This document shows positions 3,591 to 56,257 of a stretch of 64,000 nucleotides of DNA, one piece after another. Both the position numbers and the translations under genes were made by a program. The DNA is taken from assembly GCA_964435435.1 (NCBI GenBank), contig CAYSZJ010000002.1, positions 7,468 through 71,467 of the forward strand, written 5' to 3'. This stretch comes from an uncultured archaeon (lineage in GTDB: Archaea; Asgardarchaeota; Lokiarchaeia; Sigyniarchaeales; SOKP01). The notes beneath the pieces were generated by a model. That model saw only the letters and a program-made list of their open reading frames with translations, was not told the DNA's origin and made no database searches. Each line of letters starts with the position of its first letter. Positions within the stretch are counted from its first letter, which is position 1.

Positions 3591-5033
3591 ATGCACGTTA
3601 TAGATAAAGACTTAAGAATTGTATTTAAAAATCCAACTATAACTGAATGGCTTAATAAATTGAATATCAATTCAGACATAGTTGGTAAAACAGTTTTCGA
3701 GGCATTTCCTTTCTTAGTTTATGATAAAGTCTATAATGAATATGATAAAATCTTCAAAAACGGTGAGCTTCTAATCATCATAAAGGCTACAAAACAGTTT
3801 GATCGAAATGTATTTACTAAAACACTAAAAATTCCGATTAAAAGTGAGGGTGAAGTTAACCATATTATAACTACTTTAAGAGATATTACTGATCAGAAGG
3901 AAGCTGAAAAAAAATTAAAAGAATCTGAAGAAATGATTAGAACCATCACTGAACAAGCATTCATGGGGATTGTAATCATTCAAGATGATAAAATTGAATA
4001 TGTGAACAATGCTTTGCTCCATATGTTTGAATTTTCTAATCAAGAAATCGATAATTGGTTAAAAGATGATTTGCTAAGGATAATCCATCCTGAAGATTTA
4101 CAATTTCTAAGAGAATATCGAAAAAAATTACGAGTAGGTGATCCAAATATAAAACCATATTATTCCTATAGAGTATTCACAAAATCAGGCAAATTAAAAT
4201 TGATTGATCAATTCTCAAAGCCTATTATTTATAAAGGAAAACTGGCAGAATTAGTTACAATTATAGATATTACAGAAAAAAAGGAGGCTGAACAAGAGTT
4301 AATAAAATTAAATAGTCTAAAATCGGAGTTTCTCAGGAGAACTTCACATGAACTAAAAACATCGCTTGTTTCAATTAAAGGTTATTCTGACCTTTTATTA
4401 AATGTGCATAAAGAAAAACTTGATGATTATGTTCTTGCATCAATTGTTGAAATAAAACAAGGATGTGAACGGCTTGAAAGTTTTATACAGGATATATTAA
4501 ATACAGCTGAACTAGAATCAGGTGCTGTCCAATTGAAAAAAAAAGAAGAAGATTTATCTTTCTTAATAAAATTGAGTATAAGAGAGTTGCGGGGATTAAT
4601 AAATTTGAGGAACCAGAAGATTAATTTAAAAATACACGATAAATTAATTACAGCTTTTGAACCAGAACAAATTCATCGAGTTATAAGTAATTTAATAAGT
4701 AATGCTATAAAATACACACCTCCAGATGGAATTATTGAAATTAGGTCAGAAATTAAAGATAATATCATAATAATCTCTGTAAAAGATACAGGAATTGGGA
4801 TAACAAGAGAAGAAAAAGAAAGATTGTTTACTCAATTCGGGAAAATTGAACGGTATGGTCAAGGACTTGATATTATATCCGATGGATCTGGCCTTGGGTT
4901 ATATATCTCAAAAAAAGTAATAGAATTGCATGGTGGAAAGATATGGGTTGAATCTGAAGGAAGATTAAAAGGTTCAACATTTTATTTCAGTCTTCCATTA
5001 ATTATAGAAAATTCTGGTGGAACAATCCGTTAA
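3591..5033 (+). CDS. PAS-domain sensor histidine kinase (PAS, PAS, HisKA, HATPase_c)
   Basis: 480-aa ORF. H-box SEFLRRTSHELKTSL, N-box ISNLISNAIKYTP, G-boxes DTGIGI and GSGLGLYISKKVIELHGG. Two DIT(D/E)(Q/K)KEAE PAS-linker signatures. The first Met falls inside a PAS domain. Confidence 0.85.
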   Translation: MHVIDKDLRIVFKNPTITEWLNKLNINSDIVGKTVFEAFPFLVYDKVYNEYDKIFKNGELLIIIKATKQFDRNVFTKTLKIPIKSEGEVNHIITTLRDITDQKEAEKKLKESEEMIRTITEQAFMGIVIIQDDKIEYVNNALLHMFEFSNQEIDNWLKDDLLRIIHPEDLQFLREYRKKLRVGDPNIKPYYSYRVFTKSGKLKLIDQFSKPIIYKGKLAELVTIIDITEKKEAEQELIKLNSLKSEFLRRTSHELKTSLVSIKGYSDLLLNVHKEKLDDYVLASIVEIKQGCERLESFIQDILNTAELESGAVQLKKKEEDLSFLIKLSIRELRGLINLRNQKINLKIHDKLITAFEPEQIHRVISNLISNAIKYTPPDGIIEIRSEIKDNIIIISVKDTGIGITREEKERLFTQFGKIERYGQGLDIISDGSGLGLYISKKVIELHGGKIWVESEGRLKGSTFYFSLPLIIENSGGTIR

Positions 5034-5188: not shown

Positions 5189-5503
5189 ATGTTATTTATT
5201 ACATATTGGGAATTAAATGAAGATTTTGATCCATCAGATTTAGCTGAAGTAGCTCAAAAAGTTTTAAGCAAAAAATTATATCCCACTGAAGGAGTTAATC
5301 AAATTGGATGGTATGCATCTACGGGAGATTTCTGGGGAATTACAATATCAGAAGCGGAAAATGAAGAACAATTGGTTAAAGACACTAATGTGTGGAGAAT
5401 GGCGAAACCAGGCTTATTTAAGTTTATTAAAACATCTCCTGCAATGGAACTCGCTAAAGCAATTCCTATTCTGATAAAGCTTAAAAAACAACTCGAAGGA
5501 TAA
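5189..5503 (+). CDS. small conserved hypothetical protein (DUF3303-like)
   Basis: 104-aa ORF preceded by GAGGTGA 10 nt upstream. The family call is from memory of the MLF..W.. pattern only. Confidence 0.55.
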   Translation: MLFITYWELNEDFDPSDLAEVAQKVLSKKLYPTEGVNQIGWYASTGDFWGITISEAENEEQLVKDTNVWRMAKPGLFKFIKTSPAMELAKAIPILIKLKKQLEG

Positions 5504-16917: not shown

Positions 16918-18088
16918 ATGATCACAAATATCCTTAAAACAAATGATTTTGAACCAATTCTTCTCACAAAAGCTAAAGTTTCGTGGATTTATTTGGGATG
17001 TAAATGGGAAAAGATATCTAGACTGCGAATCAGGTATGTGGTGTGTAAATTTAGGTCATAATCATCCAAAAATAATACACGCTATAAAAAAACAATTAGA
17101 TAAATTGATGCATCGAAATAAGGGTTTTCTGACTCCTATTACTCTTGAAGCTGCTGAAAAATTGTTGAAGTTTTTTCCAAATGAATATGATAGACTTACA
17201 TTTTTGAATAGTGGAAGTGAAGCAATAGAATTTGGAATTTGCTTTGCTAAAAAAGTAACTGGTCGCAATAAAATACTTTCTCTTCAAGATTCTTATTTGG
17301 GAGCTTATGGTATAGCAAAAAATTCATCATATACATCCTCAGAAGATCAAAAATTTAAAGTTCCTTATCCAATATGCGATTCAGAAAAATGTGACTGCCT
17401 TGAGAAATATAAACCTATAATTGATGAAGTTTTTCATAATTTTTCATCTGATATTGCATGTTTTGCTCTAGAACCAATAATGGTAAGTGGAGGTGTGTTA
17501 AAGCCATGTAAAAATTACATCCAATATATTTGTAATAAAATACATAATATTAGTGGTTTAGTTGTAATAGATGAGATAACAACTCGTATGGAAAGAGCAG
17601 GTCTTAAATTTGGATAAGAACTTTATGATATTGCTCCAGATGATGTTGTTCTTGGCAAAGCTTTAGGCAATGGGTATCCTGTAAGTGCAATTATAACTAA
17701 TTCTTCTTTGGAATCGAAATTAACATCATCTGAATTATATTATGCTCAATCTCATCAATTAGATCCATTAGGTGCTGCTGTTGTCAAATCTGTAATTGAG
17801 GTATTTACTGAAGAACAAATTATTGAAAAAAGTCAGCAAAAAATCCATAAATTTAATGAGTTCTTACAAACGCTCAATTACCCATTTATTAGGGATATAA
17901 GATCATATGGAATGATTTTTAGCATTCAGATCAAACCCTACAATGAGATGTCGGCTGAGGAATTAATCTTAAAAATAAAAAATCAATTACTTGATGCAGG
18001 AATAATAATTGGATTTAATTTAAGTAGAGCATTCATACGTCTATTATTTCCATTAAATATCCAAAACGTTGAAATAGAATTTTTATAA
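16918..18088 (+). pseudogene. class III aminotransferase pseudogene (frameshift, in-frame TAA, degenerate motif)
   Basis: MITNILKTNDFEPILLTKAKV is encoded from ATG 16918 in one frame and continues as RGFIWDVNGKRYLD in the next frame, with an extra nt near 16983. A TAA at 17615-17617 splits ..DEITTRMERAGLKFG*ELYDIAPDDVVLGKALGNGYP. The canonical TGxGRTG motif reads TRMERAG. Confidence 0.75.
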
Positions 18089-41266: not shown

Positions 41267-44200
41267 ATGTCGAATTTGCAGAGTAGTGTTTTAGTTATCG
41301 GAGGTGGAATTGCTGGTATACAGACATCATTAGATCTCACTAAATTAGGTTTTAAAGTATATTTAGTCGAAATTAAGCCAACGATAGGAGGAACCATGGC
41401 TCAATTAGATAAAATATTTCCTACACTTGATTGTAGTTTGTGCATTTTAGCTCCAAAAATGGTTGATGTGTATAGAAATCCAAATATAGAATTATTTTCT
41501 TATTCTTACGTCAAAAAAATTCAAGGATCAGTTGGAAATTATACTATTACTGTTGTAAAAAAGCCAAGATATATTAAAGAAGATGTTTGTAAAGGCTGCG
41601 GAGAATGCGAAAAATTTTGTCCAGTTAAAGGGATTCCTAGCGAATTTAATACCCATCTAAAAACTCGAGGTGCTATATATATTCCTTTTCCATCATCAGT
41701 ACCTCCAGTTTATCTTATTGATAATACAAGATGTTTATATTTAAATTATAGAATATGTGGACTTTGTGCTAAAGTTTGTGATGCAAATGCGATAGATTTT
41801 TTACAAAAACCAGAAGAAATAAATTTAAATGTAGGAGCTATTGTTATTGCTACAGGAAATAACCAAGAAATGCCAGAGGTATATGATTCTTTTGCTGGTT
41901 CCTCCCCCAATGTTTTATCTAGTATGCAATTTGAACGTCTTTTATCTGCAAATGGACCTACTAGCGGTCAAATCATAAGATTAGATGATAAAAAACATCC
42001 TCATTCAATTGCTTTTATACAATGTGTGGGTTCTCGAGATGTTCATCATCCTGAATGTAAAAAATATTGTTCTGCAATATGTTGTATGAATTCGGCTAAA
42101 GAAGCAATTGTTGTTAAAGAACATGATCCAGATATTGAATGTTATATTTTTAATACAGAAATCAGAGCTAAAGGTAAGAATTTTTATGAATTTATTGAAA
42201 AAGGTAAAATTGAATATAACGTTAAATATATTAATGGTCATGTTTCATATATCAAAGAAAATTTAGATAACGGGAAATTAAAATTATATTACGAAGATAT
42301 TGATAAAGGAAAAGTTAGAACTTTTGAAGTAGATATGGCCATATTAGCTAGTGCATTATCTCCAACTCCCTCTTACTATAAACTTTTGGAACAACTTAAT
42401 GTGGGTTGTAACGATTTAGGTTATATTCGTGAAGAAGATATAATCTTACTTGAAGAAAAGAATATATTTGTAACTGGTTATTCTAGAAAACCAAATGATA
42501 TTCAAATGGCTGTTGCTGAAGGTTCTGCATGCGCTGCCAAAATTAGTGAAAAATTATATCCTGTTAGATTTCAAAATATAAAAAAATTTAAATATCCTCC
42601 AGAAATACCGGTAAAACCAGAGGATGAACCTCGTGTAGGTATTTTAGTTTGTCAATGTGGTATTAATATCGGAGGTATTGTTAATGTTGCCGAAGTAGTA
42701 GATTATGCTTCGAAATTACCATATGTTGTTCATGTTGAAGAAAATATGTATTCCTGTAGTTCTGATTCCCAAGAACGAATTAAAGAATTAATAAAAAAAT
42801 ATAATCTTAATAGATTTATAGTTGCTTCTTGTACTCCTCGAACTCATGATCAACTTTTTAAGAATACTCTAAGAGAGGTTGGATTAAATCCATTTTTATT
42901 TGAACTAGTAAATATAAGAAACCAAGATTCTTGGGTCCATCAAAATGAACCTAAAAAGGCTACTAAAAAAGCATGTGATTTAATCAGAATGTATTTGGCA
43001 AAGGTAATTAATTTAAAACCATTAGAAAATATTAAAGTTAAAGTTGAAAAATCAACTCTAATAATTGGTGGTGGAATAGCAGGAATAAGTGCTGCACATA
43101 ATTTAGCAAACCAAGGATTTGAAATTTATCTTGTAGATAAGAAACCTTTTCTTGGTGGCGTCGCACTCGAATTTATTGATTTATATTATATACCTATTAC
43201 AAAAAATGAAATTTTACGGGAAATTAATGATTTGAAAAACAAATCTAATGTTCATATTTTATTTAATTCAAAAATAGTTGATATTCAAGGTTATGTTGGA
43301 AATTATCAGGTTAAAGTTAAGAATATTCAAGATAAATCAAAAGATCAAATTTTCAAAGTGGGTACAATAATAGTAGCCACGGGAACTAAACAAATTAAGA
43401 CTAGTAGATGGCTAGATTTATCAGAAAGATATCCTAAACGTGTACTTACCCAAACAGAATTAACAGCGATTAAGGATGTAGATATTCCTGGGTTTAAAGA
43501 TGCTACAATAATATTATGCGTAGATCAAAGAAGAAACGAATTTAATGACGGAGATAATATAAAAACCTATTGTTCAAATATTTGTTGTGGAGTAGCATTA
43601 AAAAATATTGAAAAATTATTAAACATCAACCCTAATGCGCATATTCATATTTTATATAGAGAATTTCAATTCTCAGATTTAAATGCTGAAAATCTATGGC
43701 GAAGGCTTCGAAAAAAAGTTATTTATGAAAAATATCGTTCAATTGATGATATCAAAATCAGTGATGAAAATGGTAATTTCCATATTTTATATAAAAACAT
43801 AGGCGCTCAAACAGATATAGAATATAATACTGATTTATTAATATTGGCTACCCCTAAAGTTCCTGCTAATGATACTGACCAATTAGCAAAGTTTTTAAAA
43901 GTATCAACAAATAAAGATGGATTTTTCTTAGAAGCTGATGCAAAGCTTAGACCAATAGATTTTGCAACAGAAGGTATTTTCCTATGTGGAGGGGCTCATT
44001 GGCCAAAATGGATTGGCGAAAGTATTATTCAAGCTTATGGAGCTGCTGGTAGAGCGGCAATAATAATGGTTAAAGGGGAAATAGAAACTGAATGTATAAC
44101 TTCTTATATAGATGAAGAAAAATGCATAGGATGCGGTGCATGTATTGAGATCTGCCCTTATAACGCTATTGAATTAGTTGAAACTAATAAACAAATGGGT

Positions 44201-44380
44201 TTATATACTACTACTTTAAGAAAAGCTCATATAATTGAAGTTGTTTGTAAAGGCTGTGGAGCTTGTGTTGTAGAATGCTCAAATGGAGCGATTAATCAAA
44301 ATCATTTTAGTAAATTTCAGATTAATAAAATGATTGATTTATTACCCAGTATAGATTTAATCAGTTATAAAGTTACTTAA
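41267..44380 (+). CDS. hdrA: tandem HdrA-HdrA fusion (Cys-type heterodisulfide reductase subunit A)
   Basis: 1037-aa ORF. Module 1: VLVIGGGIAGIQ, FPTLDCSLCILAPKMV, inserted ferredoxin CKGCGECEKFCP. Module 2: VGILVCQCGINIGG, IVASCTPRTH, NIRNQDSWVH, LIIGGGIAGISAA and a C-terminal 2x[4Fe-4S] (CIGCGACIEICP, CKGCGACVVEC). Confidence 0.85.
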   Translation: MSNLQSSVLVIGGGIAGIQTSLDLTKLGFKVYLVEIKPTIGGTMAQLDKIFPTLDCSLCILAPKMVDVYRNPNIELFSYSYVKKIQGSVGNYTITVVKKPRYIKEDVCKGCGECEKFCPVKGIPSEFNTHLKTRGAIYIPFPSSVPPVYLIDNTRCLYLNYRICGLCAKVCDANAIDFLQKPEEINLNVGAIVIATGNNQEMPEVYDSFAGSSPNVLSSMQFERLLSANGPTSGQIIRLDDKKHPHSIAFIQCVGSRDVHHPECKKYCSAICCMNSAKEAIVVKEHDPDIECYIFNTEIRAKGKNFYEFIEKGKIEYNVKYINGHVSYIKENLDNGKLKLYYEDIDKGKVRTFEVDMAILASALSPTPSYYKLLEQLNVGCNDLGYIREEDIILLEEKNIFVTGYSRKPNDIQMAVAEGSACAAKISEKLYPVRFQNIKKFKYPPEIPVKPEDEPRVGILVCQCGINIGGIVNVAEVVDYASKLPYVVHVEENMYSCSSDSQERIKELIKKYNLNRFIVASCTPRTHDQLFKNTLREVGLNPFLFELVNIRNQDSWVHQNEPKKATKKACDLIRMYLAKVINLKPLENIKVKVEKSTLIIGGGIAGISAAHNLANQGFEIYLVDKKPFLGGVALEFIDLYYIPITKNEILREINDLKNKSNVHILFNSKIVDIQGYVGNYQVKVKNIQDKSKDQIFKVGTIIVATGTKQIKTSRWLDLSERYPKRVLTQTELTAIKDVDIPGFKDATIILCVDQRRNEFNDGDNIKTYCSNICCGVALKNIEKLLNINPNAHIHILYREFQFSDLNAENLWRRLRKKVIYEKYRSIDDIKISDENGNFHILYKNIGAQTDIEYNTDLLILATPKVPANDTDQLAKFLKVSTNKDGFFLEADAKLRPIDFATEGIFLCGGAHWPKWIGESIIQAYGAAGRAAIIMVKGEIETECITSYIDEEKCIGCGACIEICPYNAIELVETNKQMGLYTTTLRKAHIIEVVCKGCGACVVECSNGAINQNHFSKFQINKMIDLLPSIDLISYKVT

Positions 44381-44396
44381 TTTGGGGAGAATTTTA

Positions 44397-44861
44397 ATGT
44401 TAAAAATTAAAAAAAAAGTAATAAAAGAATTTGAACCAAATATTTTAGTTTTTTGTTGTAATTGGTGTAGTTACGCGGGTGCAGACTTAGCAGGAGTCTC
44501 TAGATTCCAATATCCCCCGAATATTAGAATTATTAGGGTAATGTGTTCTAGCCGCGTTGAACCAGCATTTGCTTTAAGAGCTTTTAATAATGGAATAGAT
44601 GGAGTATTAATTATTGGATGCCATAAGGGAGATTGTCATTATATGAAAGGATTCGAATATACTGAAGTTAGAATGTATCATTTAAAGAAATTAATAAAAT
44701 ATATTGGAATTGAGGCAAATAGATTTCAATTACACTCAATTTCAGCAAGTGAGGGAAAACAATTTTCAGAGTTAATTAAAGATTTTACAAAGACAATTAT
44801 AGAATTAGGAGAATTAAAAATCCCTAAAAAATCTGGATTAATTGAATTAGAATATAATTAA
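44397..44861 (+). CDS. mvhD: MvhD-type [2Fe-2S] electron-transfer subunit
   Basis: ILVFCCNWCSYAGADLAG..VMCSSRV..GVLIIGCHKGDCHY. I prefer ATG 44397 (GGGGAG 8 nt upstream) over the track's TTG 44382. Confidence 0.85.
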   Translation: MLKIKKKVIKEFEPNILVFCCNWCSYAGADLAGVSRFQYPPNIRIIRVMCSSRVEPAFALRAFNNGIDGVLIIGCHKGDCHYMKGFEYTEVRMYHLKKLIKYIGIEANRFQLHSISASEGKQFSELIKDFTKTIIELGELKIPKKSGLIELEYN

Positions 44862-44881
44862 AAAAAAAAGAGAAAATTATA

Positions 44882-46000
44882 ATGACTGAATCAGAATCTC
44901 AGAAACTTTTGGACAATGAGGTAAAAACATTTGAAGATCTTGAAAATGAAGTAATTAAAAATAATAAGTGCTGTGCATGTGGAGCCTGTGTAGCATATTG
45001 TGAGAGTCAGGGTTTTAATGTTATTGAGATGAATGGATATATTCCTGGGTTTATATCAGAAAAGAGTGTTAGTAACTGTACTAAATGTGGTGTTTGTTAT
45101 TATATTTGTCCTCAAACTTCAACAATAATAGAAGAATTAAATGCTGCATATTCTATTGAAGATAATATTGGACATATTATAAAAATTTTAGCAGCTAAAA
45201 CAACAGACTCAGCAATAGAAAAAGTTGGACAAGATGGAGGAATAGTTTCAACAATCCTAAATTATTTATTTGAAAAAAATAAAATTGACGCAGCTATAGT
45301 TTCAGAATTTGATTATAAATTTAAACCAGTTCCAAAAATTATATTTAATAAAGAAGACTTGTTAAAATCAGCAGGCACACGTTATTCCATTTCTCCTCAA
45401 ATATTTCCTTTAAAGGATTTATATCATATTTCACAAGAAATAATTAAGAAAAAAAGGATTTTTGACATCGACCAATTACGCGTGGCATTTATTGGTACAC
45501 CTTGTCAATGTAGAGCAATAAGTAAAATGCGTTTCTTACATGTTAAACCAGCTCATGTTATTAAATATATATTAAGTCTTTTTTGTTTCGAAAATTTTGA
45601 TTATAGTAAATTATATGATATTTTGAGAAAAGAAACGAATGTAGATCCAATTAACATAAGAAAAACCTGGATAAAGAGAAATTTTTTTATAGCTACTAGA
45701 AATAATGAACAATTCGAAGTAAACATCAAAATACTAGACCCTGCTGTTAGAAAACATTGCCATGAATGTAATGAATTTACTGGTCGATTTTCGGATATTA
45801 GTATTGGATCATCTGGAGCACCAAAAGAATATTCAATGATAATAATTCGAACAGAAATTGGTTATAAAATAATAAAATCTATTCTTTCTTATGGATTAAT
45901 TGAACAATTTGTTGTACCAGCTAGCCAAAATGCAGATTGGATAAATAAGAAACTTAATTGGTATAATAAATTAATTTCTTTCAAAGCAAATCATAATTAA
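44882..46000 (+). CDS. FrhB/FdhB-family protein with N-terminal 2x[4Fe-4S]
   Basis: CCACGACVAYC and CTKCGVCYYICP. Also GQDGGIVSTIL, IGTPCQCRA and SDISIGSSGAP. Confidence 0.8.
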   Translation: MTESESQKLLDNEVKTFEDLENEVIKNNKCCACGACVAYCESQGFNVIEMNGYIPGFISEKSVSNCTKCGVCYYICPQTSTIIEELNAAYSIEDNIGHIIKILAAKTTDSAIEKVGQDGGIVSTILNYLFEKNKIDAAIVSEFDYKFKPVPKIIFNKEDLLKSAGTRYSISPQIFPLKDLYHISQEIIKKKRIFDIDQLRVAFIGTPCQCRAISKMRFLHVKPAHVIKYILSLFCFENFDYSKLYDILRKETNVDPINIRKTWIKRNFFIATRNNEQFEVNIKILDPAVRKHCHECNEFTGRFSDISIGSSGAPKEYSMIIIRTEIGYKIIKSILSYGLIEQFVVPASQNADWINKKLNWYNKLISFKANHN

Positions 46001-46190: not shown

Positions 46191-47303
46191 TCAATTTACT
46201 GATTTGCCCTTAATAAAATTTTCAAATCGTTCTAGTTTGGATTGAGAAAATTGAATAAGTATATTTTTCATTTCATTTTTTTTTGTAACATCTAATTCTC
46301 CACAATTAATTATTCCTGCTTCGATTGCTTTTGAAAATACCTTTTTTCCTTTATCAGTTCGAGTAATAACTGTCGTAAATTTTTCTTGCGATCCTAACCC
46401 ACCAAAAGATATATCTGCATAGATATTAGTAAAATCCTTACATGCATTACATGCCGAACGCATGCAATCATTTAGTTTACTGAATGGGATATGTACGGTT
46501 TTTTCTCCTGATCTCCTATTTCTTAATCTAAGTATTAAATCTTTTTTAATATTTATCTTCTTGATATTCTCGAATTTTATTTTAAAATCCTTTTCAAATT
46601 TGTCAACTTTTATATTATCAAAAAAGAAATTTTCGTAACAAAACAATCCTAAGCAAATTTCTATATTCTCAGAGGGAACTATGCCTAAATCTTGCATACA
46701 TCTTATTGTATAAATTTGGCATGGCGTTCCAACTATTGCTAATTTTTTAAATTTAAATCTTTTTAATAATGGAAAGGAACTAGTGTAGGTATGAAATTTT
46801 TGAATTTCATCTAATTGCATCGAAATATCTAATTTAATACCTGAAGCATTAATTAAATCTTCTTTTGTTTTGGCGATGATAGCTTCTCTTGCAAAGGGAG
46901 TTTTTGTCTTAGCGACAATTGCTCCATCAATTAATTTTTGTTGTAACATAAAATGAATTAGTGAGTTTACAACACCTCCATCCGTTCCATAATTCAAAAA
47001 ATCTCTTTCTTTCGCCTGACAGGAATAAATATTATCTATATAACCTATAGGCTTTGAAGAAAAACCTGAAAATTTAAAGGTATCATTAAGCTCATCATCT
47101 AAAATATGCGTTTGTGGACAAATAACAAAACATATTCCACACTCAAGACATTTTTCCTCGTTTAAATATTCTGGGGGTGAATTAGGTTGCTTATAACCTA
47201 TTACATCTTGCTCAAGAGAATTACAAAAACTTACACACCCACCACATTGTTGACAAATACCTCTTTCATGTACTTCCTTTATCAAATCTTTAAATGTTTT
47301 CAT
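46191..47303 (-). CDS. FrhB/FdhB-family protein with N-terminal 2x[4Fe-4S]
   Basis: CQQCGGCVSFC and CLECGICFVICP. Also GTDGGVVNSLI, VGTPCQIYT and ADISFGGLGS. Confidence 0.8.
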   Translation of the reverse strand: MKTFKDLIKEVHERGICQQCGGCVSFCNSLEQDVIGYKQPNSPPEYLNEEKCLECGICFVICPQTHILDDELNDTFKFSGFSSKPIGYIDNIYSCQAKERDFLNYGTDGGVVNSLIHFMLQQKLIDGAIVAKTKTPFAREAIIAKTKEDLINASGIKLDISMQLDEIQKFHTYTSSFPLLKRFKFKKLAIVGTPCQIYTIRCMQDLGIVPSENIEICLGLFCYENFFFDNIKVDKFEKDFKIKFENIKKINIKKDLILRLRNRRSGEKTVHIPFSKLNDCMRSACNACKDFTNIYADISFGGLGSQEKFTTVITRTDKGKKVFSKAIEAGIINCGELDVTKKNEMKNILIQFSQSKLERFENFIKGKSVN

Positions 47304-47517
47304 ATTAATACCACTTCTTTTCTAATTCCATATTTTTTATTTTACATTTCGAAAATTTTTATGACTAATTAGATAAATCTTATGATCACTATGATAAATA
47401 TGGTTGTCATAACATTTTAATCTATTCGATATTGATAATTAGCTATAATTTGTAATTTAATATTTTTAAAATAAAAAATATTCTTATAAGAGAAAATAAG
47501 TAATAATTTAAAATAAT

Positions 47518-47587
47518 TCCAAAACCTCGTGCTACGAGTTAGTCTTCTCTCAACTATCATTTTCTTGAGAGTATCATTCGTTTTGGA
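47518..47587 (-). promoter_or_regulatory. candidate SECIS element (eukaryote-like, kink-turn type) in the hdrA 3' UTR
   Basis: mRNA sense, directly after the UAA: UCCAAAAC-GAAUGAUA-CUCUCAA-GAAAAUGAUAG-UUGAGAG-AAGACUAA-CUCGU-AGC-ACGAG-GUUUUGGA. It has an 8-bp basal helix and a 7-bp upper helix. AUGA on the 5' strand faces GA on the 3' strand (potential tandem G.A pairs), and the apical loop is A-rich. Confidence 0.55.
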
Positions 47588-49627
47588 TTAAGGTTTTATA
47601 GATGAGGAGGGAGTTGGAACACGTTTTATTTCTTCTTCAACAAGTTCATGAACAACTAAAACAGGTTCAACCTCATAACTACAGATTCCTTTGATTTCTT
47701 CAATGAGTTGTTTATTTCTATAATATTTTAATTCGATTGCTCTAGCAGGACAAGAAGAAATACATACTCCGCAACCTTTACATTTCAAATCGTCAACAAT
47801 AGCTACAGCTTCAGAATTAACTTTTATCGCTTTATAATTACAAAGTTTCTCACATCTATGACAGCCCATACAAAGATCTTCATTTACTTCTGCAATTATT
47901 AATTCTTGGCTTATATTATCATCAGAAAATAGAGTTGCTACTTTGCTTGCTGCTGCTAAAGCTGTCGATACTGAATATGGTATATTTTTCGGACCAGAAG
48001 CACATCCACATATATAAATTCCTGTATTCATTGTTTCTTGAGGCTTTAGGCATCCATGAACCTCGTTTAAAAATCCACTTGGCCCCTTTTTAAGACCTAT
48101 ATTCTTAATGATTTCTTCTGTTCCTTTAGACACAACCATACCTGTTGACAATACGACTAAATCGGCATTAACATCTAATATATCACCAGTTAAAGATGAA
48201 CAAGCGTGTACTCTTAAGTTTTTAGTTATAGAATCTTCGGTGATTTTACCTACTTTTCCGCGAATCATAAGAACACCCGATTCTCGTACTTTTCGATAAT
48301 ATTCCTCACTTCTTTTGTCTGTTGTTCGAATATCGATATAGAAAATAACAACATTAGTGTTTGGATACTCTTGTTTTAATAATTGAGCATTCTTTAGAGC
48401 AACACTACAACAAACACCTGAGCAATAAGTATTAGCTCTTAAAGATCTTGATCCGACACATTGGATCATTACAATCGTCTTAGGCGTCTTACCATCAGTA
48501 ATTCTACATAAGTGTCCCTCAGTTGGTCCAATTGGACTAAGCATTCTTTCCAATTCTATTTGAGTGATTATATTAGGATAATATCCATAATTATATTCAT
48601 TAGTTTCCCAAATCGGATATTCATCCCATCCAGTAGCTATAATTACTGCTCCAACTTTAATATCGATATATTCTGTTTCTTGCTCAAAATCAATAGCTTC
48701 AGCAGGACAAATTCTCTGACATGATTTACAATTAATACAGACATTTTTATCTATAACAGCAAGTTTAGGGACCGCTTGAGGGAAAGGAACATATATTGCA
48801 CTCCTTTCTCCTATACATCGGTTGAATTCATTAGGAATTTTTATAGGACATTTAGTAGTACATAACTCACATCCTGCACATTTATTTTCATCAATATAAC
48901 GAGGATTTTTACGAATTTTGACACTAAAATTTCCAGGAATTCCACTAAATTCAACAACTTCACTATAAGTCAGCAATGTTATATTTGGGTGTTTTGATGT
49001 ATTCACCATAATTGGGGCTAATACTCATATACCACAATCGTCTGTAGGAAAAATTCTATCTAGTTGTGCCATTTTTCCTCCAATAGTTGGTTCTTTTTCA
49101 ACTAAGTAAATTTTAAATCCTTGATGGGCTAAATCTAACGCTGCATTCATTCCAGCAATTCCAGCGCCAATTATTAACACATTCTTTTCTATTGGGATTT
49201 TTTTATAGTGTATCATTTCTAATTCTCGTGCACGATTTATACCTGCTTGAACTAATCTTTTTGCTTTTTCTGTAGCTCTTTTTTTATCCTTTGCATGAAC
49301 GAATGAACATTGTTCACGCAAATTAACCATTTGGAAGTAATATGGACTTAATCCTGCTTCAACTAGAACAGCTCTATATGTTGATTCATGTATTTTTGGT
49401 GTGCAAGCTGCAACTACAATTCTATTTAAATCTTGCTCTAAGATGTCATCTTTAATAATCTTTTGCCCAGGATCGCTGCATGTAAAATTATTACATTTAG
49501 CAATCATTACATTTGGTAATGTTTCTACAAAATCTCTTACTGCGTCGCAATCAATAGTAGCTCCAATATTGACTCCTCATCTACATATATAAACTCCGAT
49601 TCGAATTTTGGTCTGTTTTTCAGACAT
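47588..49627 (-). CDS. hdrA: heterodisulfide reductase subunit A with two in-frame UGA (selenocysteine) codons
   Basis: ATG 49627, with AAGGGTG upstream. MSEKQTKIRIGVYICR-TGA(49577-49579)-GVNIGATIDCD.. runs into the 160-aa ORF. ..DRIFPTDDCGI-TGA(49025-49027)-VLAPIMV runs into the 473-aa ORF. All three parts share one frame, and both UGAs align with Cys in the two paralogues. Confidence 0.85.
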
Positions 49628-50009
49628 ATAATACACCCTTGTTAAACGTCACCAAATTTTTATTATTTCAATATATAATTTTTTTATTTTTGATGCATAA
49701 CCAATAATTATTACAAGCGCTTTTACCCCATGTAAATGGCAATATAATTAAAATTTAAAGAATCTGATAAGAAAAATAATAGTAAATTTGATAATTTTTA
49801 TTGTCAAAATGTTTTTTTTAAAACAAGTTTTTTATTCATTTCAAAAATCAGGTGATCAATTCTAATACATAACTTTATATGATCTGACAATAATATTTAT
49901 CATGAAGATCATAAAATTTGTTAATTTAGTCATTTAATTTTTATTTTTGATTAAAGCTAAGATTTATTAAAATTATAAATTTTTAAAGAAAGATGAGGTT
50001 AGCTAAAAG

Positions 50010-52559
50010 TTGGACGTATATTCTATTTTGTCTCACCCCTTTAGAAGGAAGATTTTGTTGCTTTTAGAAAAAGCAGGCTATATTCCGTATACAGAATTAA
50101 TGGAAAAACTTGGTTTAGAAACAACTGGACAATTAAATTTTCATCTCAAAAAAATTGGTTCCCTTATTGATAAAGACAAAAAATCTTATTTTCTTACGGA
50201 AGATGGAAAACGTATACTTAAAATACTCAACCTTAATAAAAGAATTCTTTCTGGAGAAGATATTGATGACTATTTAGAATCGAAGGGGAGCGAAATAAGC
50301 AGAATAGGAGTTATAATTTGCAATTGCAATACAGAAATTTCGAGAGTAATTAATATTATATCTCTCGAAAATTATGTAAAAAAATTAAAAAATGTTGTTT
50401 CAATTAGAGTTTTCGAAAATTTATGTCAACAAAAAAATTTTACTAAAATTACAAATTGGGTTAAAGATAATTTTTTGAATAAAATTGTGATAGCAGGATG
50501 TTCTCCTAGAACGCATCAACTTCTGTTTGAACGAATTTTTGATGAGGTTATTGATCGACCAAATATAGAAATAGCAAATATTAGAGAACAATGTTGTTGG
50601 GTACATGAATTTAAAGAAAAAAATATTGAGCCCTTAATTTCTTTAGAAAAAGCTAAACTATTGATTGAAGCTGCTGTTGAGCGGGTAAACCTACAAAAGA
50701 AAGTAAAAATTAAGAGAGTTGAAGTAGAAAAGAGCTGTGCTATCTTAGGTGGGGGAATCTCAGGTATGACACTTGCTTTAAATTTGGCTCGAGCAGATAT
50801 TAAAGTGTATCTCATCGAAAAATCACCCACATTAGGAGGTAAGGTTGCTAGATGGCATCGTGTCCATCAAATGGGTGATTGTTCTATTTGTTTTATTTCG
50901 GAATTAATAAGTGAATTAGTGAAAGAAAAAAATATTGAAATCCTTACAAGCACCGAAGTTGAAAATGTATCAGGAGAGGTTGGTGAATTTAGTATTGATT
51001 TGATAAAGAAACCTCGGTTTGTAGATACTAAAAAATGTACTGGGTGTAAACAATGTATAGATGTATGTAGCATTGAAAAGTCAAATGAGTATGAGTGTGG
51101 GTTAACAAGTAGAAAAGTTATATATATTCCATTTATTCATTGCTATCCTTATGTCCCTTTAATTGATGAAGAAGATATAAAAAATTGTCTTAATTGTAGA
51201 ATTTGCGAACGGGCATGTGTCAATAAGGCAATAGATTTAACTCAAAAACATGAAAAAATTAAAGTTAAAGTCGGTGCAAAAGTTATTGCTATTGGTTCTG
51301 ATTTATATGATCATTTAGAGTCTTATCATTATAATCCATACAAAAATATTATAACTTCAGCTGAGTTTGAGCGGATATTATCTTCTGATGGGATTACTGA
51401 AGGAAAACTTCTTAGATTGTCTGATAAAAAGCCCATAAATTCGGTTTCTATTCTCCAAGAGATTGGTCCATCAAAATATCTTGCTGATTACTCTGAAATT
51501 TTGGCTGAAAAATATATTGAAGATATTAAAATAAAAAACCCTGATTGCGAAGTCAATATTTTTTACGATTTAGGTAAATTAAAAGAAAGGGATAAAGTTT
51601 TATTAAGATCAACTAACCCTGCATTTATATACGCAGATAAAATTACTATTGAATCTAATAAAGATGTGAATTATGTCATCGCTGATAGTATCGAATTTCC
51701 AAGTGATTTAATCGTATTAAATCTAAAATTTATCCCAAATAAAGATTTGAAAAGACTTCGAAAAGTTATGGATTTTACATTAGATGATAATGGATTTATG
51801 AGTGAAGAAACTCTAGCGTCTGGTATTTATGGTGTTGGAACGATTTTCGGTCCATTGGATTATAATTCCACTATTTCAACCGTTAATAATGTTGCATTAA
51901 AAATCATCTCATTACTCTTCCAAGATTATCTAATTGCAGAATTTACTGGCATAGAACTTGATGAAAGTAAATGTGGTCTATGCGGATTATGCTCACAAAT
52001 CTGCCCTTATAATGCTATTACACTAGAGTCTGAAAAAGTATGTATCGATAAATTTAAATGCAAGGGATGTGGGACTTGTGTTAGTATCTGTCCAACAAAT
52101 GCCATAGATCTCAATTTAGATACATCAGAAAAGATTCTTAAAACAATTGAAGTTTTTTCAAAATTTAATAGAAATCCAAAAATAATTGCTTTTTGTTGTC
52201 GTTCTTGTGGTTATGCTGCTGCTGATAATGCTGGTTTAAAAAAGATTTCATATTATCCTAATATTTTTATCATTCGAGTTCCTTGTACAGGAAGGATTGA
52301 CACTAATTTCATTATTAAATCATTTGAAATGGGATTTGATGGAGTAATGATAATTGGTTGCAGAAAAGAAGCATGCAGATATATTGATGGAATAGAAAAA
52401 ATCGAAAATAAAATTAAAATATTAAAAAATTTATTAGGAGTAAATTTTAGCAAACGAATTATTCTTGAACATATGAATGCTGTGGAGGGTAATAAGTTTG
52501 CTGAAATCGTAAATAGTTTTTATTTAGAATTATCAGAGGAGATTAAATTTGAAGTCTAA
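50010..52559 (+). CDS. ArsR-type wHTH - HdrA - MvhD triple fusion
   Basis: 849-aa ORF. N-terminus ILSHPFRRKILLLLEKAGYIPYTELMEKLGLETTGQLNFHLKKI. HdrA part IGVIICNCNTE, IAGCSPRTH, NIREQCCWVH, ILGGGISGMTLA, GDCSICF, CTGCKQCIDVC. C-terminus IIAFCCRSCGYAAADNAG..VPCTGRI..GVMIIGCRKEACRY (MvhD). Confidence 0.8.
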   Translation: MDVYSILSHPFRRKILLLLEKAGYIPYTELMEKLGLETTGQLNFHLKKIGSLIDKDKKSYFLTEDGKRILKILNLNKRILSGEDIDDYLESKGSEISRIGVIICNCNTEISRVINIISLENYVKKLKNVVSIRVFENLCQQKNFTKITNWVKDNFLNKIVIAGCSPRTHQLLFERIFDEVIDRPNIEIANIREQCCWVHEFKEKNIEPLISLEKAKLLIEAAVERVNLQKKVKIKRVEVEKSCAILGGGISGMTLALNLARADIKVYLIEKSPTLGGKVARWHRVHQMGDCSICFISELISELVKEKNIEILTSTEVENVSGEVGEFSIDLIKKPRFVDTKKCTGCKQCIDVCSIEKSNEYECGLTSRKVIYIPFIHCYPYVPLIDEEDIKNCLNCRICERACVNKAIDLTQKHEKIKVKVGAKVIAIGSDLYDHLESYHYNPYKNIITSAEFERILSSDGITEGKLLRLSDKKPINSVSILQEIGPSKYLADYSEILAEKYIEDIKIKNPDCEVNIFYDLGKLKERDKVLLRSTNPAFIYADKITIESNKDVNYVIADSIEFPSDLIVLNLKFIPNKDLKRLRKVMDFTLDDNGFMSEETLASGIYGVGTIFGPLDYNSTISTVNNVALKIISLLFQDYLIAEFTGIELDESKCGLCGLCSQICPYNAITLESEKVCIDKFKCKGCGTCVSICPTNAIDLNLDTSEKILKTIEVFSKFNRNPKIIAFCCRSCGYAAADNAGLKKISYYPNIFIIRVPCTGRIDTNFIIKSFEMGFDGVMIIGCRKEACRYIDGIEKIENKIKILKNLLGVNFSKRIILEHMNAVEGNKFAEIVNSFYLELSEEIKFEV

Positions 52560-53307
52560 AATTATTATAACCTCTCTAACATCATGCAGTGGTTGCATCT
52601 CAACTTTAATTTCATTAGACATATTTCCTCAATTCCTTGAACGAACAAGGATAATACATTTTCCATTTATTTCGGATGCTGAAAAAATCGAAGATTGTGA
52701 TATTGCATTGGTAGAAGGATGTATTTCTAATGAAAAAGAAATTCCACTTCTTAAAAGTATCCGAAAAAATGCTAAAAAGGTTTATGCAATAGGTTCTTGT
52801 GCAGCATTCGGAGGGATTCTAAGCCTTTCAAATTCAATTATCGCAGAACCAATCTCTAATTATATTGAAATCGAGGGAATAATTCCTGGATGTGCTCCAC
52901 CAACAAAACTATTTGGAAATTTTCTAATTAGATTAATTGAAAACAAAGAATTTAAATTGTCTGAAAAAAATATGTGTGCTGGTTGCCCATTAAGAGAAGA
53001 TATTGAAATTAATTTTACTAATGAAATAAATAAAATTAACCCAAATTTTGAGGAAATTAATCTTGATGATGAGAACTCCAAATGCTTTTTAAAAAGAGGA
53101 ATCTTATGTTTAGGCCCAATAACTCGTGATGGATGTGAATATAAATGTATAGAATATGGAATTCCATGTGAAGGTTGTATGGGACCTGTTTCAAAAGGTT
53201 TTACGTCGAATATTATTAATCTTTTAAGTTTAATTAATTTTTCTGAGGATTTAAAAAATTATGGAGGTTTATTTTATCGTTTTTCAAGACCAAAGATAAA
53301 ATGGTGA
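52549..53307 (+). CDS. mvhG: [NiFe]-hydrogenase small subunit, MvhG-like (group 3)
   Basis: SLTSCSGCIST, GSCAAFGGI, PGCAPP and the distal cluster region CAGCPL..CLGPITRDGCEYKCIEYGIPCEGCMGP. TTG start 6 nt after GAGGAG, overlapping the upstream gene by 11 nt. Confidence 0.85.
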   Translation: MKSKIIITSLTSCSGCISTLISLDIFPQFLERTRIIHFPFISDAEKIEDCDIALVEGCISNEKEIPLLKSIRKNAKKVYAIGSCAAFGGILSLSNSIIAEPISNYIEIEGIIPGCAPPTKLFGNFLIRLIENKEFKLSEKNMCAGCPLREDIEINFTNEINKINPNFEEINLDDENSKCFLKRGILCLGPITRDGCEYKCIEYGIPCEGCMGPVSKGFTSNIINLLSLINFSEDLKNYGGLFYRFSRPKIKW

Positions 53308-53314
53308 TGCTTTA

Positions 53315-54616
53315 TTGTTGAAAACTGTTGATGTTTGTACCCGTGTTGAGGGACATGGAAATGTAAACATATTAATTCAGGATGACAATGTTTCAAATGT
53401 TGACTTTGAAATTTCAGCATATCGCGGATTTGAAAAATTTTTAATTAGTAAAAGATTAGGCGATATGCCTAAATTAATTTCTCGAATATGTGGTTTATGT
53501 TATGCATCGCAAGCAATCGCTAGTTGTAAAGCAATCGAAAACTTATACGATGTAGAAATTATAGAACAATCAATTCTTTTAAGACGACTATTGCTATGTG
53601 GAGAATTAATTAAATCGCATTGTATGCATTTTTTCTTCCAGTCATTACCAGATCTCTTAACAATTTTTAATATAAGCCAAAAACCACTTTCTCTATATGA
53701 ATTAATTAATTTCAATCCACAGTTAACAACAAACCTGTATGAACTAATTAAATTTGGAAATGAGATTGAAATTTTATTTGGTGGGAGATCTGCACATTTG
53801 ATTTCTCCGATTCCAGGTGGATTAATTTATTCACCTTCTCGAAAGAATATTACTATAGCTCAAAAATATATGCAAAAAGCTTCAAATAATTTAGAAATGA
53901 TTATTGAAACTTTTATTGAGTATTTTTCTAATAAAATTCCACCAGAAGAATTTTCACTTCCAAATCCAATTTATATTGGAATAAATAATCTGGGAAATTA
54001 TGATAGATATTCGGGTATTTTTAAGATCATAGAATCGGAAAGAAAAGCAATTGATTTCCAAGAAAAATCTTATTCTCTTTATTTTGATAAGGATATTGAT
54101 TTACGTGGAATAGATTTTCATTTTGATAAAAATAATGTATTAACTGGTCCAATAGCTAGGTTTAAAATCATTGAAACCTATGGAAATGATAAAGTTTCCA
54201 CATATCTTGAAAATTTTGATAAATCTTGGACTAATAATATTCTATTTTCTGAGTTTCTTAAGTTATTAGAAATGTTCGTTGAAACTGAACAAGCGTTAAA
54301 CATTTTAGATACTCCTTCTTTATCCATAAAGCAGAAACTTCCTACTCTAAGATCCATAAAAAATTCAGAAGGTATTGGATTTGTTGAGGCTCCAAGAGGA
54401 ATACTTATGCATCATTATTATATTGATAAGAACGACTTAATTATTAAATTGAAGCTTTTTATTGCGACTGAAATAAATATTCCGCTTATTAATGAAATGA
54501 TTACGAAATATGCCCAAAAATTATATGAAAAAACAGGCGATTTAAATTTAATTAAAAAACAAGTTCAAATGATTATCAGAGCTTTTGATCCTTGTATATC
54601 ATGTGCTACACATTAA
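53315..54616 (+). CDS. mvhA: [NiFe]-hydrogenase large subunit, MvhA-like (group 3)
   Basis: TRVEGHG, RICGLCYASQ (N-terminal Ni-binding motif) and C-terminal DPCISCATH, followed directly by a stop. Confidence 0.85.
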   Translation: MLKTVDVCTRVEGHGNVNILIQDDNVSNVDFEISAYRGFEKFLISKRLGDMPKLISRICGLCYASQAIASCKAIENLYDVEIIEQSILLRRLLLCGELIKSHCMHFFFQSLPDLLTIFNISQKPLSLYELINFNPQLTTNLYELIKFGNEIEILFGGRSAHLISPIPGGLIYSPSRKNITIAQKYMQKASNNLEMIIETFIEYFSNKIPPEEFSLPNPIYIGINNLGNYDRYSGIFKIIESERKAIDFQEKSYSLYFDKDIDLRGIDFHFDKNNVLTGPIARFKIIETYGNDKVSTYLENFDKSWTNNILFSEFLKLLEMFVETEQALNILDTPSLSIKQKLPTLRSIKNSEGIGFVEAPRGILMHHYYIDKNDLIIKLKLFIATEINIPLINEMITKYAQKLYEKTGDLNLIKKQVQMIIRAFDPCISCATH

Positions 54617-54705
54617 TATAGGTGATATATTGGATCAAATAACATAAAATTTTAGAATGTTTCTAATTCAAATTGAATATTGAATTTGTTGCTATTCAAA
54701 TATAA

Positions 54706-54730
54706 ATATATGCAAAAAGATCATTTATAT
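54706..54730. repeat. 25-nt motif ATATATGCAAAAAGATCATTTATAT, inverted partner at 56647-56671
   Basis: Its reverse complement matches 56647-56671 at 24 of 25 positions. It lies 91 nt upstream of ATG 54821. A 15-nt direct repeat AAATTGAATATTGAA also occurs at 54670-54684 and 56703-56717. Confidence 0.7.
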
Positions 54731-54820
54731 GTTTTTATTTATATATTATATATGTAATTTTAAATGTATTTTAATTAAAACATATAATATTATAAAAATT
54801 CTAAATACAAGATTTGAAAA

Positions 54821-56257
54821 ATGACAACTAGAAAGATATTAAGTGATTATTTTCAATGTGATATTTCAGAATTTGGATTCCAAGACTTATATGATTTAGT
54901 CATAAGTAAAAATATTTGCGTTCTTTGTGGAACTTGTATGTTAATTTGTCCCCGCATTGGTATGACTAAGAATCAACCTTCACTTTTGGATTATGATCCA
55001 GAATGTTCCTTATGTTTCAAATACTGTGCAAAAACATACTTTCCAGAGAAATTCTTTGAGAAGGAAATTTTTAATAATCAAATCCCAAAAGATCCCTTAA
55101 TAGGATATTATCAAAAAACTACTGTGGCTAAAAGTACTGATGATATTATTTTAAAACAAGCTCAAAATGGTGGAATAGTTACTACTTTACTTATTCACGC
55201 TCTGAATAATAAATTAATTGATGGAGTTCTACTTACAGGTAGAGATGAAAATTGGATTCCAAAACCGATTATTGCTAGAACTCCAAAAGAAATTTTAGAT
55301 GCAACAGGATCGATATATGCTTTATCTCCTAGTCTAATAACTTATAAAGATGCTGTGTATAAATATAAATTAAAACGGCTTGCATTTGTTGGTATGCCAT
55401 GCCAAATTCAAGCAGTAAGAAAACTTCAGTTTTTTCCTCCCCTCTCAGATAAATTTGGAAAATTTACACTTATAATTGGTCTTTTTTGTACTTCAAATTA
55501 TTCTTATGATTCAATGAAAGAAATTATTCAGAAAGAAATAAAAGTGCCTATAACTAAGGTAAAGAAACTTGATATAGCACAGGGTAAATTTATTGTTTAC
55601 ACAAAAGATGGACTGGTTAAAGAAATTCCCTTAAAAAAAGTTAAAAAATATAATTGGCCTAGTTGCCAATTCTGTAAAGATTATACTGCTGAATTTTCAG
55701 ACATATCTGTAGGAAGTGTTGGCGCTCCTGAAAATGGCTGGAATAGTGTAATTATTCGTTCTGATGTTGGTAGGAAAATATTTAATGATACTTTAGCTTC
55801 TAAGAAAATTAAAGTTGACGATCAAATAGATCTTGAAAAAATTAAGAATGATTCTTTAAGGAAGAAATCAAAAGTAATACAGATTGATGAAAAAATCTTA
55901 TCAGCAATGCGTTTATTTAATGTTTCTAAACTTGAGGGAAAAACTTTTACAACTCTTCTTTCTTTGGAGCATGCTGATTTGTCTATGTTGAGTGCAGTGA
56001 TGAACAGAGAACAACATGAGATTGTTAATGCTCTTGAAATGTTACAAAAGAGAAATTGGATATTTTCAACTAATGAATTTTATAAGCCATATAATCCAGT
56101 CAAGATATTTAAAGAAGAAATATACCAGTTAAAGAAAAGGCTTTATAATGACATAGATAATTTTAAATCAGAGGCATTAAAAGAGTTAAAAACAATTTAT
56201 TTCCAAAATAATCTCAAAGATGTAAAAGATATGGAATTTATTGATATTTTATTCTAA
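54821..56257 (+). CDS. FrhB/FdhB-family protein with a C-terminal TrmB-like wHTH and coiled-coil extension
   Basis: CVLCGTCMLICP, AQNGGIVTTLL, VGMPCQIQA and SDISVGSVGAP. The C-terminal roughly 130 aa include MRLFNVSKLEGKTFTTLLSLEHADLSMLSAVMNREQHEIVNALEMLQKRNWI. Confidence 0.75.
   Translation: MTTRKILSDYFQCDISEFGFQDLYDLVISKNICVLCGTCMLICPRIGMTKNQPSLLDYDPECSLCFKYCAKTYFPEKFFEKEIFNNQIPKDPLIGYYQKTTVAKSTDDIILKQAQNGGIVTTLLIHALNNKLIDGVLLTGRDENWIPKPIIARTPKEILDATGSIYALSPSLITYKDAVYKYKLKRLAFVGMPCQIQAVRKLQFFPPLSDKFGKFTLIIGLFCTSNYSYDSMKEIIQKEIKVPITKVKKLDIAQGKFIVYTKDGLVKEIPLKKVKKYNWPSCQFCKDYTAEFSDISVGSVGAPENGWNSVIIRSDVGRKIFNDTLASKKIKVDDQIDLEKIKNDSLRKKSKVIQIDEKILSAMRLFNVSKLEGKTFTTLLSLEHADLSMLSAVMNREQHEIVNALEMLQKRNWIFSTNEFYKPYNPVKIFKEEIYQLKKRLYNDIDNFKSEALKELKTIYFQNNLKDVKDMEFIDILF

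Follow-up and report, generated by a model that had tools for sequence, protein, structure and literature searches.

The window analyzed here, a 64,000-nucleotide (nt) stretch of contig CAYSZJ010000002.1, contains an hdrA gene (heterodisulfide reductase subunit A-like) that includes two in-frame UGA codons and is directly followed, on the same strand, by a 70-nt RNA element. We conclude, with a probability of about 0.88, that this element is the selenocysteine insertion sequence (SECIS) of an hdrA mRNA with two selenocysteine (Sec) codons in a low-GC, Promethearchaeota/Lokiarchaeia-like archaeon, and that it is of the Loki type, that is, the Asgard eukaryote-like, type I variety. An earlier note on this DNA had proposed a eukaryote-like SECIS at the same position; the call is right yet not new, elements of this kind having been described in 2016, and the window adds another member. 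The single point that may add to current knowledge is the architecture surrounding the published core, a three-way junction formed with a basal helix and a side hairpin.

The hdrA gene and the element at its 3′ end

The gene and its codons of interest are the following.

47588..49627, minus strand: hdrA, ATG at 49627, 679 codons plus the UAA stop
47590-47588, minus strand: UAA stop of hdrA, as assigned from the translation
49579-49577, minus strand: UGA no. 1, codon 17, in the context ...VYICR-U-GVNIG..., ~2.0 kb upstream of the SECIS core
49027-49025, minus strand: UGA no. 2, codon 201, in the context ...DDCGI-U-VLAP..., ~1.45 kb upstream of the SECIS core

The hdrA product contains FAD/NAD-binding and several 4Fe-4S domains (Pfam), and the UGA at codon 201 corresponds to the canonical Sec position of HdrA, around residue 200 (PMC4989117). 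The arrangement to which the earlier note drew attention, a single element behind a gene with two UGAs up to 2 kb upstream, agrees with the distances given above. Gene callers break hdrA into fragments of 160 and 473 amino acids (aa) and leave the first 16 codons uncalled. When the C-terminal fragment was used as a query, 4,440 homologues were retrieved at E <= 1e-30, the best of them from Asgard metagenome-assembled genomes (MAGs); many of these proteins are about 460-475 aa long because gene callers truncated them where the second UGA occurs. We also examined ten database homologues of full length (651-678 aa; P0006, P0008, P0016, P0018, P0043, P0045, P0062, P0083, P0106 and P0114), and every one of them has W at the two Sec positions (...CRWGVN... 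and ...GIWVLAP...). Translation of UGA as Trp by assembly pipelines put this residue into the Asgard HdrA entries, hiding the selenoproteins, and such entries are therefore no real negative controls.

A profile search, with one genome retained per species, yielded 80 hdrA loci from MAGs of Promethearchaeota and of Hod-, Hermod-, Thor- and Odinarchaeota. The codon aligned with codon 17 is TGA in 74 of the 80 loci and never TAA or TAG; at the position of codon 201, TGA is present in 79. Both stops are TGA at the identical two codons in 74/80 loci, again with no case of TAA or TAG. A scan of the window for other open reading frames (ORFs) bridged by an in-frame TGA found no credible candidate besides hdrA. 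Because TGA is the ordinary terminator of at least three other long ORFs within the window, the hdrA UGAs are site-specific events and not the result of a code change.

A bacterial-type SECIS or Sec redefinition element at the first UGA (49545-49580, minus strand) was considered and rejected. The stem in question consists of 10 positions (9 pairs) with a 10-nt loop, UGA GGAGUCAAUA ... UAUUGAUUGC; it is kept in a minority of the orthologues only, and the local 63-nt slice has a different minimum free energy (MFE) structure. The stem probably arises incidentally from the conserved V-N-I...I-D-C codons.

The element behind the gene and the sequence that follows it consist of the parts listed below.

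47518..47587, minus strand: complete candidate SECIS element, a three-way junction, beginning at the first base past the UAA (0 nt gap)
47580..47587, minus strand: basal helix, 5′ strand UCCAAAAC, pairing with 47525-47518
47574..47577, minus strand: AUGA, by sequence the 5′ half of a putative U.C / G.A / A.G / U-A quartet
47565..47573, minus strand: upper stem (helix II), 5′ strand UACUCUCAA, from fold and covariation
47554..47564, minus strand: apical loop GAAAAUGAUAG, 11 nt with an A-rich start and an AG end, from the fold
47545..47553, minus strand: upper stem (helix II), 3′ strand UUGAGAGAA, from fold and covariation
47543..47544, minus strand: GA of the core, by sequence the 3′ half of the putative quartet
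47539..47542, minus strand: linker CUAA, in which the C directly after GA is invariant in the family
47526..47538, minus strand: side hairpin CUCGU-AGC-ACGAG, 5 bp with the loop AGC
47518..47525, minus strand: basal helix, 3′ strand GUUUUGGA, from fold and covariation
47430..47517, minus strand: A/U-rich tail with several U runs, from the sequence

Read from 47587 to 47518, the element has the order UCCAAAAC-GA-AUGA-UACUCUCAA-GAAAAUGAUAG-UUGAGAGAA-GA-CUAA-CUCGU-AGC-ACGAG-GUUUUGGA. RNAfold predicts a basal helix of 8 bp, an upper helix of 7 bp that closes the 11-nt loop, and a side hairpin of 5 bp, a structure identical to the one drawn in the earlier note, and the fold is unchanged when the element is embedded in a 181-nt context. 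The MFE of -19.6 kcal/mol, compared to -10.1 +/- 2.3 in 200 dinucleotide shuffles, none of which is as stable (z = -4.09), lends the fold thermodynamic support. The 7-bp helix, previously placed about 9 positions above the core, stands as a helix, but on a finer reading it is part of a stem of 9 positions (U-A, A.A and 7 Watson-Crick pairs) that sits directly on AUGA. The apical loop starts with GAAAA, so that 4 of its first 5 bases are A. Judging from its composition, the A/U-rich tail is probably where the hdrA transcript ends or is terminated; the downstream gene appears to have a promoter-like repeat of its own (47352-47425).

A loose scan of the window for AUGA, a stem-loop and [G/A]A gave dozens of chance matches and is uninformative in DNA with 29% G+C; we therefore relied on a strict pattern and on a covariance model. 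The strict pattern, ATGA-N9-RAAAA-N4-AG-N9-RAC, occurs once in the window, compared to 0.04 occurrences expected. Two other candidate identities were considered and abandoned: the RUGAUGA/CUGA box pair of a C/D-box small RNA was not seen in the element upon inspection by eye, and Rfam gave no match; the only terminator-like match in the region lies on the opposite strand, where it corresponds to the side hairpin in complement, and no gene reads into it.

The features of the hdrA element are those of a known class. The lokiSECIS was described in Asgard archaea by Mariotti et al. (2016, Mol Biol Evol; PMC4989117) as AUGA followed by a 9-bp stem and then GA (AA in some genes), with an 11-nt loop in which A is preferred in the first five positions and the last base is an ultraconserved G, mostly preceded by A, and with a location near the stop codon. 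Huang, Xiao & Zhang (2024, ISME J; PMC11227280) widened this description to a 'type I eSECIS-like' model, with a stem of 7-15 bp including at most 2 mismatches and a loop of 8-20 nt, and detected eSECIS-like structures for 85% of the 1,400-odd selenoprotein genes from Asgard archaea that were considered. In the window, AUGA occupies 47577-47574 and the stem follows immediately; UACUCUCAA/UUGAGAGAA has 9 positions, with 8 standard pairs and an A.A; the loop GAAAAUGAUAG has 11 nt, an A-rich start and the AG end; the 3′ GA, at 47544-47543, precedes the family-invariant C; and the element adjoins the UAA of hdrA, whose codons 17 and 201 are in-frame UGAs. The covariance-model match (77.3 bits) was obtained with our own model, described below, and not with the published lokiSECISearch model.

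Conservation of the element and the three-way junction

The covariance model (R1) was built from a MAFFT alignment (A3) of 74 orthologous hdrA(/vhuD) elements from which the window was excluded. On the window, it matches 47512-47590 with 77.3 bits and an E-value of 1.1e-16. The earlier note had envisaged a better SECIS elsewhere as a challenge to its proposal; the second-best match in the 64 kb, at 16929-17003 (plus strand), reaches only 17.7 bits (E 0.16). This match is located at the start of the ORF 16943-17617, has several broken stem pairs and no credible in-frame-UGA gene upstream, and is most likely due to chance. In the window, R1 detected no element at the Cys-containing genes for HdrA-like, MvhD and MvhA, and none at the gene for the HdrA-MvhD fusion (50010-52559).

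Two classes of loci can be distinguished among the 80. In the tandem class, hdrA is directly followed by mvhD/vhuD, the arrangement of the 2016 paper, and a downstream MvhD match was detected in 56 loci. The solo class, which includes the window hdrA, consists of 21 loci without a downstream mvhD, most of them, the window among these, with a longer C-terminal tail of HdrA; three loci end before the class can be assigned. Solo-class HdrA proteins are present in the 2024 data set (PMC11227280), from which the window's own protein is absent. Of the 80 loci, 74 were recognized by a pattern search for AUGA, a 9-bp stem, an 11-nt loop and [G/A]A, and 76 by R1, with one match per hdrA locus; at least 3 of the 4 loci without a match are cut by a contig end. 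The element is located behind vhuD in the tandem class and 11 nt past the hdrA stop in most of the solo class. No further SECIS-like elements were found in the flanks of the 80 loci. Two loci (L050 and L069; DATKTW010000119.1 and DATKTW010000173.1) with an Asgard-type Sec-hdrA and a lokiSECIS are assigned to a 'Candidatus Nanopelagicaceae bacterium' MAG, which probably holds these Asgard contigs as a result of mis-binning or contamination.

Conservation of the AUGA/[G/A]A core in orthologous 3′ regions, proposed earlier as a check, was observed for the core and for all helices, with covariation, in 74-76 such regions. When the three-helix structure is imposed on the unbiased alignment A3, 90.6% of the cells are paired, compared to at most 61% when the partners are slid by 1-3 columns; compensatory changes are found at 18 of the 21 pairs, in all three helices, and the observed values were reached in none of 500 column shuffles. 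The upper stem has compensatory changes at all 9 pairs and 94.7% of the cells paired. For the basal helix, such changes are found at 5 of 7 pairs, with 91% of the cells paired, and for the side hairpin at 4 of 5 pairs, with 82%; in the latter, conservation is good for the three outer pairs and weaker for the two inner ones. Across 75 aligned elements, the A, U and G of AUGA are invariant and its final A nearly so; the AAA and the terminal G of the loop are invariant, as is the C after [G/A]A. The basal helix changes from the consensus UCCGAAA/UUUCGGA to UCUGAAA/UUUCAGA in the solo class and to UCCAAAAC/GUUUUGGA in the window, all by compensatory changes, and the side hairpin reads CCCAU-AGC-AUGGG in the consensus compared to CUCGU-AGC-ACGAG in the window. 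Single-sequence MFE folds of the 74 elements include the basal helix in 62 cases and the side hairpin in 61, and 46 of the folds show the complete set of three helices.

The same layout recurs in an unrelated selenoprotein family. With Prx-like selenoprotein sequences from the 2024 supplement (PMC11227280), we assembled 80 metagenomic loci, of which 73 bear a lokiSECIS with a basal helix (e.g. AUCCCAA/UUGGGAU), the core, GA-C and a hairpin (e.g. ACCUU-GCU-AAGGU); GAC is invariant in 65 Prx-like elements. The model R1 produces 87 full-length matches of 25-52 bits in these loci, and covariation in the three helices is abundant on an alignment that was fitted to the model and tends to favour its structure. 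The basal helix and the side hairpin are conserved with covariation in two unrelated families, hdrA/vhuD and Prx-like. In ten Prx-like loci (L116, L123, L126, L137, L139, L140, L144, L149, L159 and L161), two R1 matches occur on the same strand, 700-720 bases apart, a spacing that points to Prx-like selenoprotein genes in tandem with one element apiece.

As modelled, the junction adds to the published core a basal helix, the invariant C after [G/A]A and the 3′ side hairpin, and has the strand topology of a k-junction. The side branch is not mentioned in the main text of PMC4989117, PMC11227280, a 2021 Asgard paper or a 2026 review, and nothing linking an archaeal SECIS with a three-way junction was found in the literature searched. 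Tentatively, the architecture with a basal helix and a side hairpin appears to be undescribed so far. A bolder proposition is that the working unit of the Asgard SECIS is an obligate three-way junction; its third helix could be the determinant for a binding factor, in which case eukaryotes would have lost this helix once SBP2 arose. We consider this conceivable, though less likely than not.

The placement of the element relative to the stop codon varies. In 37 loci that are apparently tandem, the upstream ORF crosses the 5′ strand of the basal helix and the UAG stop is located 1 nt before AUGA, the usual place of the vhuD stop in the tandem class.

About 5325-5335, locus L005: a tandem example, with UAG 1 nt ahead of AUGA

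In 9 hdrA/vhuD and 10 Prx-like cases, the UGA within the AUGA core is the stop codon itself; in particular, the solo hdrA genes of L007, L017 and L038 (about 4931-4934) stop at the UGA of AUGA. The 2016 reasoning held that hdrA never terminates at UGA (PMC4989117), and this rule fails for the solo class.

Decoding model and alternative explanations

Under the mechanism that we propose, the RNA would fold as a three-way junction composed of the basal helix, the 9-position upper stem with its 11-nt A-rich loop and the 3′ side hairpin. AUGA opposite GA at the foot of the upper stem would then form tandem sheared G.A pairs, creating a kink-turn-like core for recognition by a SECIS-binding factor. 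Because SBP2, the partner of eukaryotic SECIS, has not been found in any archaeon (PMC4989117), a different protein is proposed for this role, with an L7Ae/L30-family protein or the Sec-specific elongation factor (EFSec) itself as the candidates. By analogy with the eukaryotic paradigm and the papers cited here, the bound factor would recruit or activate EFSec carrying Sec-tRNA(Sec), so that ribosomes paused at the UGAs 1.45 and 2.0 kb upstream could insert Sec, while the adjacent UAA, being too close for recoding, would terminate translation normally. The role of the hdrA element in Sec decoding is, in this sense, deduced by analogy.

Several observations weigh against this assignment. Sec insertion by any Asgard SECIS has not yet been shown experimentally, and a lokiarchaeal SECIS was non-functional in Methanococcus maripaludis (PMC11881835); such inactivity is expected if the binding factor is lineage-specific, yet it leaves the function unproven. 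No gene for tRNASec, EFSec, PSTK, SepSecS or SelD, and indeed no tRNA gene at all, was found in the 64-kb window. A close HdrA orthologue with Cys, sought as a negative control, was not found among the homologues examined. The upper stem contains a single A.A mismatch, leaving 8 standard pairs in 9 positions. RNAalifold, applied de novo to the 75-sequence alignment, recovers the upper stem alone and not the basal helix or the side hairpin, and therefore the support for these two helices comes from the pair counts for the specified structure and from the single-sequence folds. Finally, Rfam gave no match over the whole window at the gathering threshold, and a search of 47300-47700 at E <= 10 gave none to a SECIS family, a spurious miRNA match being the only one. 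These Rfam results agree with the observation that the SECIS models available before 2016 miss the Loki elements (PMC4989117).

Among the competing explanations, the one that fares best, although we regard it as improbable, is that the element is a conserved 3′-end RNA with a different job, such as termination, stabilization or regulation through a kink-turn that binds L7Ae. Kink-turns bind L7Ae in many archaeal RNAs, and the element directly precedes the U-rich tail, a possible archaeal terminator; furthermore, functional proof is lacking for Asgard SECIS in general, the one assayed in a heterologous methanogen having failed (PMC11881835). A plain terminator or stability hairpin, however, needs neither an invariant AUGA...[G/A]AC core nor a fixed 9-bp stem and 11-nt loop with the invariant AAA and G. 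Nor does such a role account for the distribution of the element: in about 850 kb of Asgard sequence, the significant R1 matches are all located just downstream of hdrA/vhuD or of a Prx-like match, with one match per hdrA, where the in-frame TGA is conserved, and one, or two in ten loci, per Prx-like locus, whereas the remaining genes of the window have none, and this holds for the paralogous hdrA-like, mvhD and mvhA that contain Cys.

Less probable still is the possibility that the UGAs are decoded in some other way, by reassignment to Trp or Gly or by near-cognate read-through, or that hdrA is a pseudogene, the hairpin being unrelated in either case. Several public pipelines do give W at both sites in the homologues, and the Sec machinery lies beyond the reach of a 64-kb window. 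However, TGA terminates at least three other long ORFs of the window, and the in-frame UGAs are found at exactly two codons that are conserved in 74/80 loci, one of these being the canonical HdrA Sec site. The hdrA ORF is otherwise intact and conserved, with about 70-77% amino-acid identity, and a complete Sec machinery has been documented for Lokiarchaeota and other Asgard lineages (PMC4989117, PMC11227280). A chance origin of the fold in A/T-rich intergenic DNA can be dismissed: the 29% G+C window matches the loose AUGA-stem-loop-[G/A]A pattern in dozens of places, but the z-score of -4.09, the single strict-pattern match against 0.04 expected, the R1 E-value of about 1e-16 and the covariation in three helices rule chance out.

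With the element taken as the SECIS of a two-Sec hdrA mRNA, hdrA should be annotated as one 679-residue selenoprotein gene and the 70-nt element as its SECIS. The class of Asgard eukaryote-like SECIS, which is central to the debate on the origin of the eukaryotic selenocysteine system, thereby gains a new member. The three-way junction, represented by about 75 hdrA/vhuD elements and about 87 Prx-like matches, offers a handle for finding the archaeal SECIS-binding protein.

Gene neighbourhood and relation to known elements

The hdrA gene is located amid a dense cluster of paralogous electron-bifurcation genes (41267-46000 and 50010-56257), the main components of which are given below.

41267-46000: a 1,037-aa double-FAD HdrA-like gene, then mvhD, then a FrhB-like gene
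41267-44861, within the preceding: the Cys-containing HdrA-like and MvhD paralogues without an element
50010-52559: an 849-aa fusion of a winged-helix domain (DUF7347), HdrA and MvhD
Within the 50010-56257 cluster: mvhG and mvhA
54821-56257: a FrhB-like protein with a C-terminal TrmB-type DNA-binding domain

The paralogues in the cluster use Cys, not Sec, and MvhA, the large subunit of [NiFe]-hydrogenase, ends with DPCISCATH. A 74-nt inverted repeat with 74% complementarity flanks hdrA and the SECIS (47352-47425 and 49869-49942); its core, TTATGATCNNNATGATAAATATNNTTGTCA, has exactly 2 copies in the window, compared to 0 expected. The arms are located some 50-140 nt upstream of two genes that point outward, the FrhB-like gene from 47303 (minus strand) and the helix-turn-helix (HTH)-HdrA-MvhD fusion from 50010 (plus strand). 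The repeat probably represents the duplication of a promoter or operator, which a rearrangement may have left behind, given that in most related loci the FrhB-like gene lies between the fusion gene and hdrA.

Among the known elements, the closest is the lokiSECIS, with which the hdrA element shares AUGA, the 9-position stem, the 11-nt loop, GA and the adjacency to the stop codon, as well as the arrangement of one element for several UGAs spread over about 2 kb. It differs in having GA where most of the hdrA/vhuD elements have AA, the AUGA_AA variant being known for Lokiarchaeia hdrA/frhD (PMC11227280), and in the one A.A of the stem. The genomic arrangement also differs from that described in 2016, where Loki hdrA precedes vhuD and the two share one SECIS behind vhuD: according to that account, Loki hdrA always uses the vhuD element, its own having degenerated (PMC4989117), whereas the window hdrA is solo and has its own. 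Hence hdrA need not share a SECIS with vhuD.

The likeness to eukaryotic SECIS form 1 (RF00031, SECIS_1) consists of the AUGA_GA quartet, which is compatible by sequence, and the A's in the apical loop. The upper stem of the hdrA element is shorter, and the internal loop carries an additional hairpin in its 3′ strand, which makes a three-way junction out of what, in the eukaryotic form, is a branchless succession of helix I, internal loop and helix II. The core, by sequence, and the loop A's agree with the eukaryotic form, whereas the Rfam eukaryotic model gives no match and the layout is not the branchless one with two helices; 'eukaryote-like' denotes a resemblance, not family membership.

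The SECIS of Euryarchaeota (Methanococcales and Methanopyrus) are likewise archaeal, are located in 3′ untranslated regions and act at a distance, and their purine-rich internal loop resembles a kink-turn; those of euryarchaeal vhuD/hdrA also bear AUGA and a GAC/AAC motif (PMC4989117, PMC11227280). The stem and loop sizes differ, and the GAA_A bulge with its G-C clamps is not part of the hdrA 3′ region: a scan of the 287-nt hdrA 3′ intergenic region detected no GAA_A bulge, with 0.13 expected by chance, in agreement with the earlier opinion that the element is not of the methanogen type.

Outside the SECIS, the closest parallel is the k-junction, a three-way junction of the thiamine pyrophosphate (TPP) riboswitch (Wang, Daldrop, Huang & Lilley 2014, NAR; PMC4005666), onto which the basal helix would map as C, the upper stem as NC and the side hairpin as T. 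The comparison concerns the topology of the secondary structure alone, in which the two agree; the k-junction proper is defined by coaxial stacking and cross-strand hydrogen bonds in three dimensions. The linkers of the hdrA element are longer, the 5′ one having at least 4 nt (GA + AU) ahead of the G.A pairs and the 3′ one being CUAA, and the predicted role is translational recoding as opposed to ligand sensing. The resemblance of the hdrA element to the k-junction is thus best taken as an analogy drawn from secondary structure.

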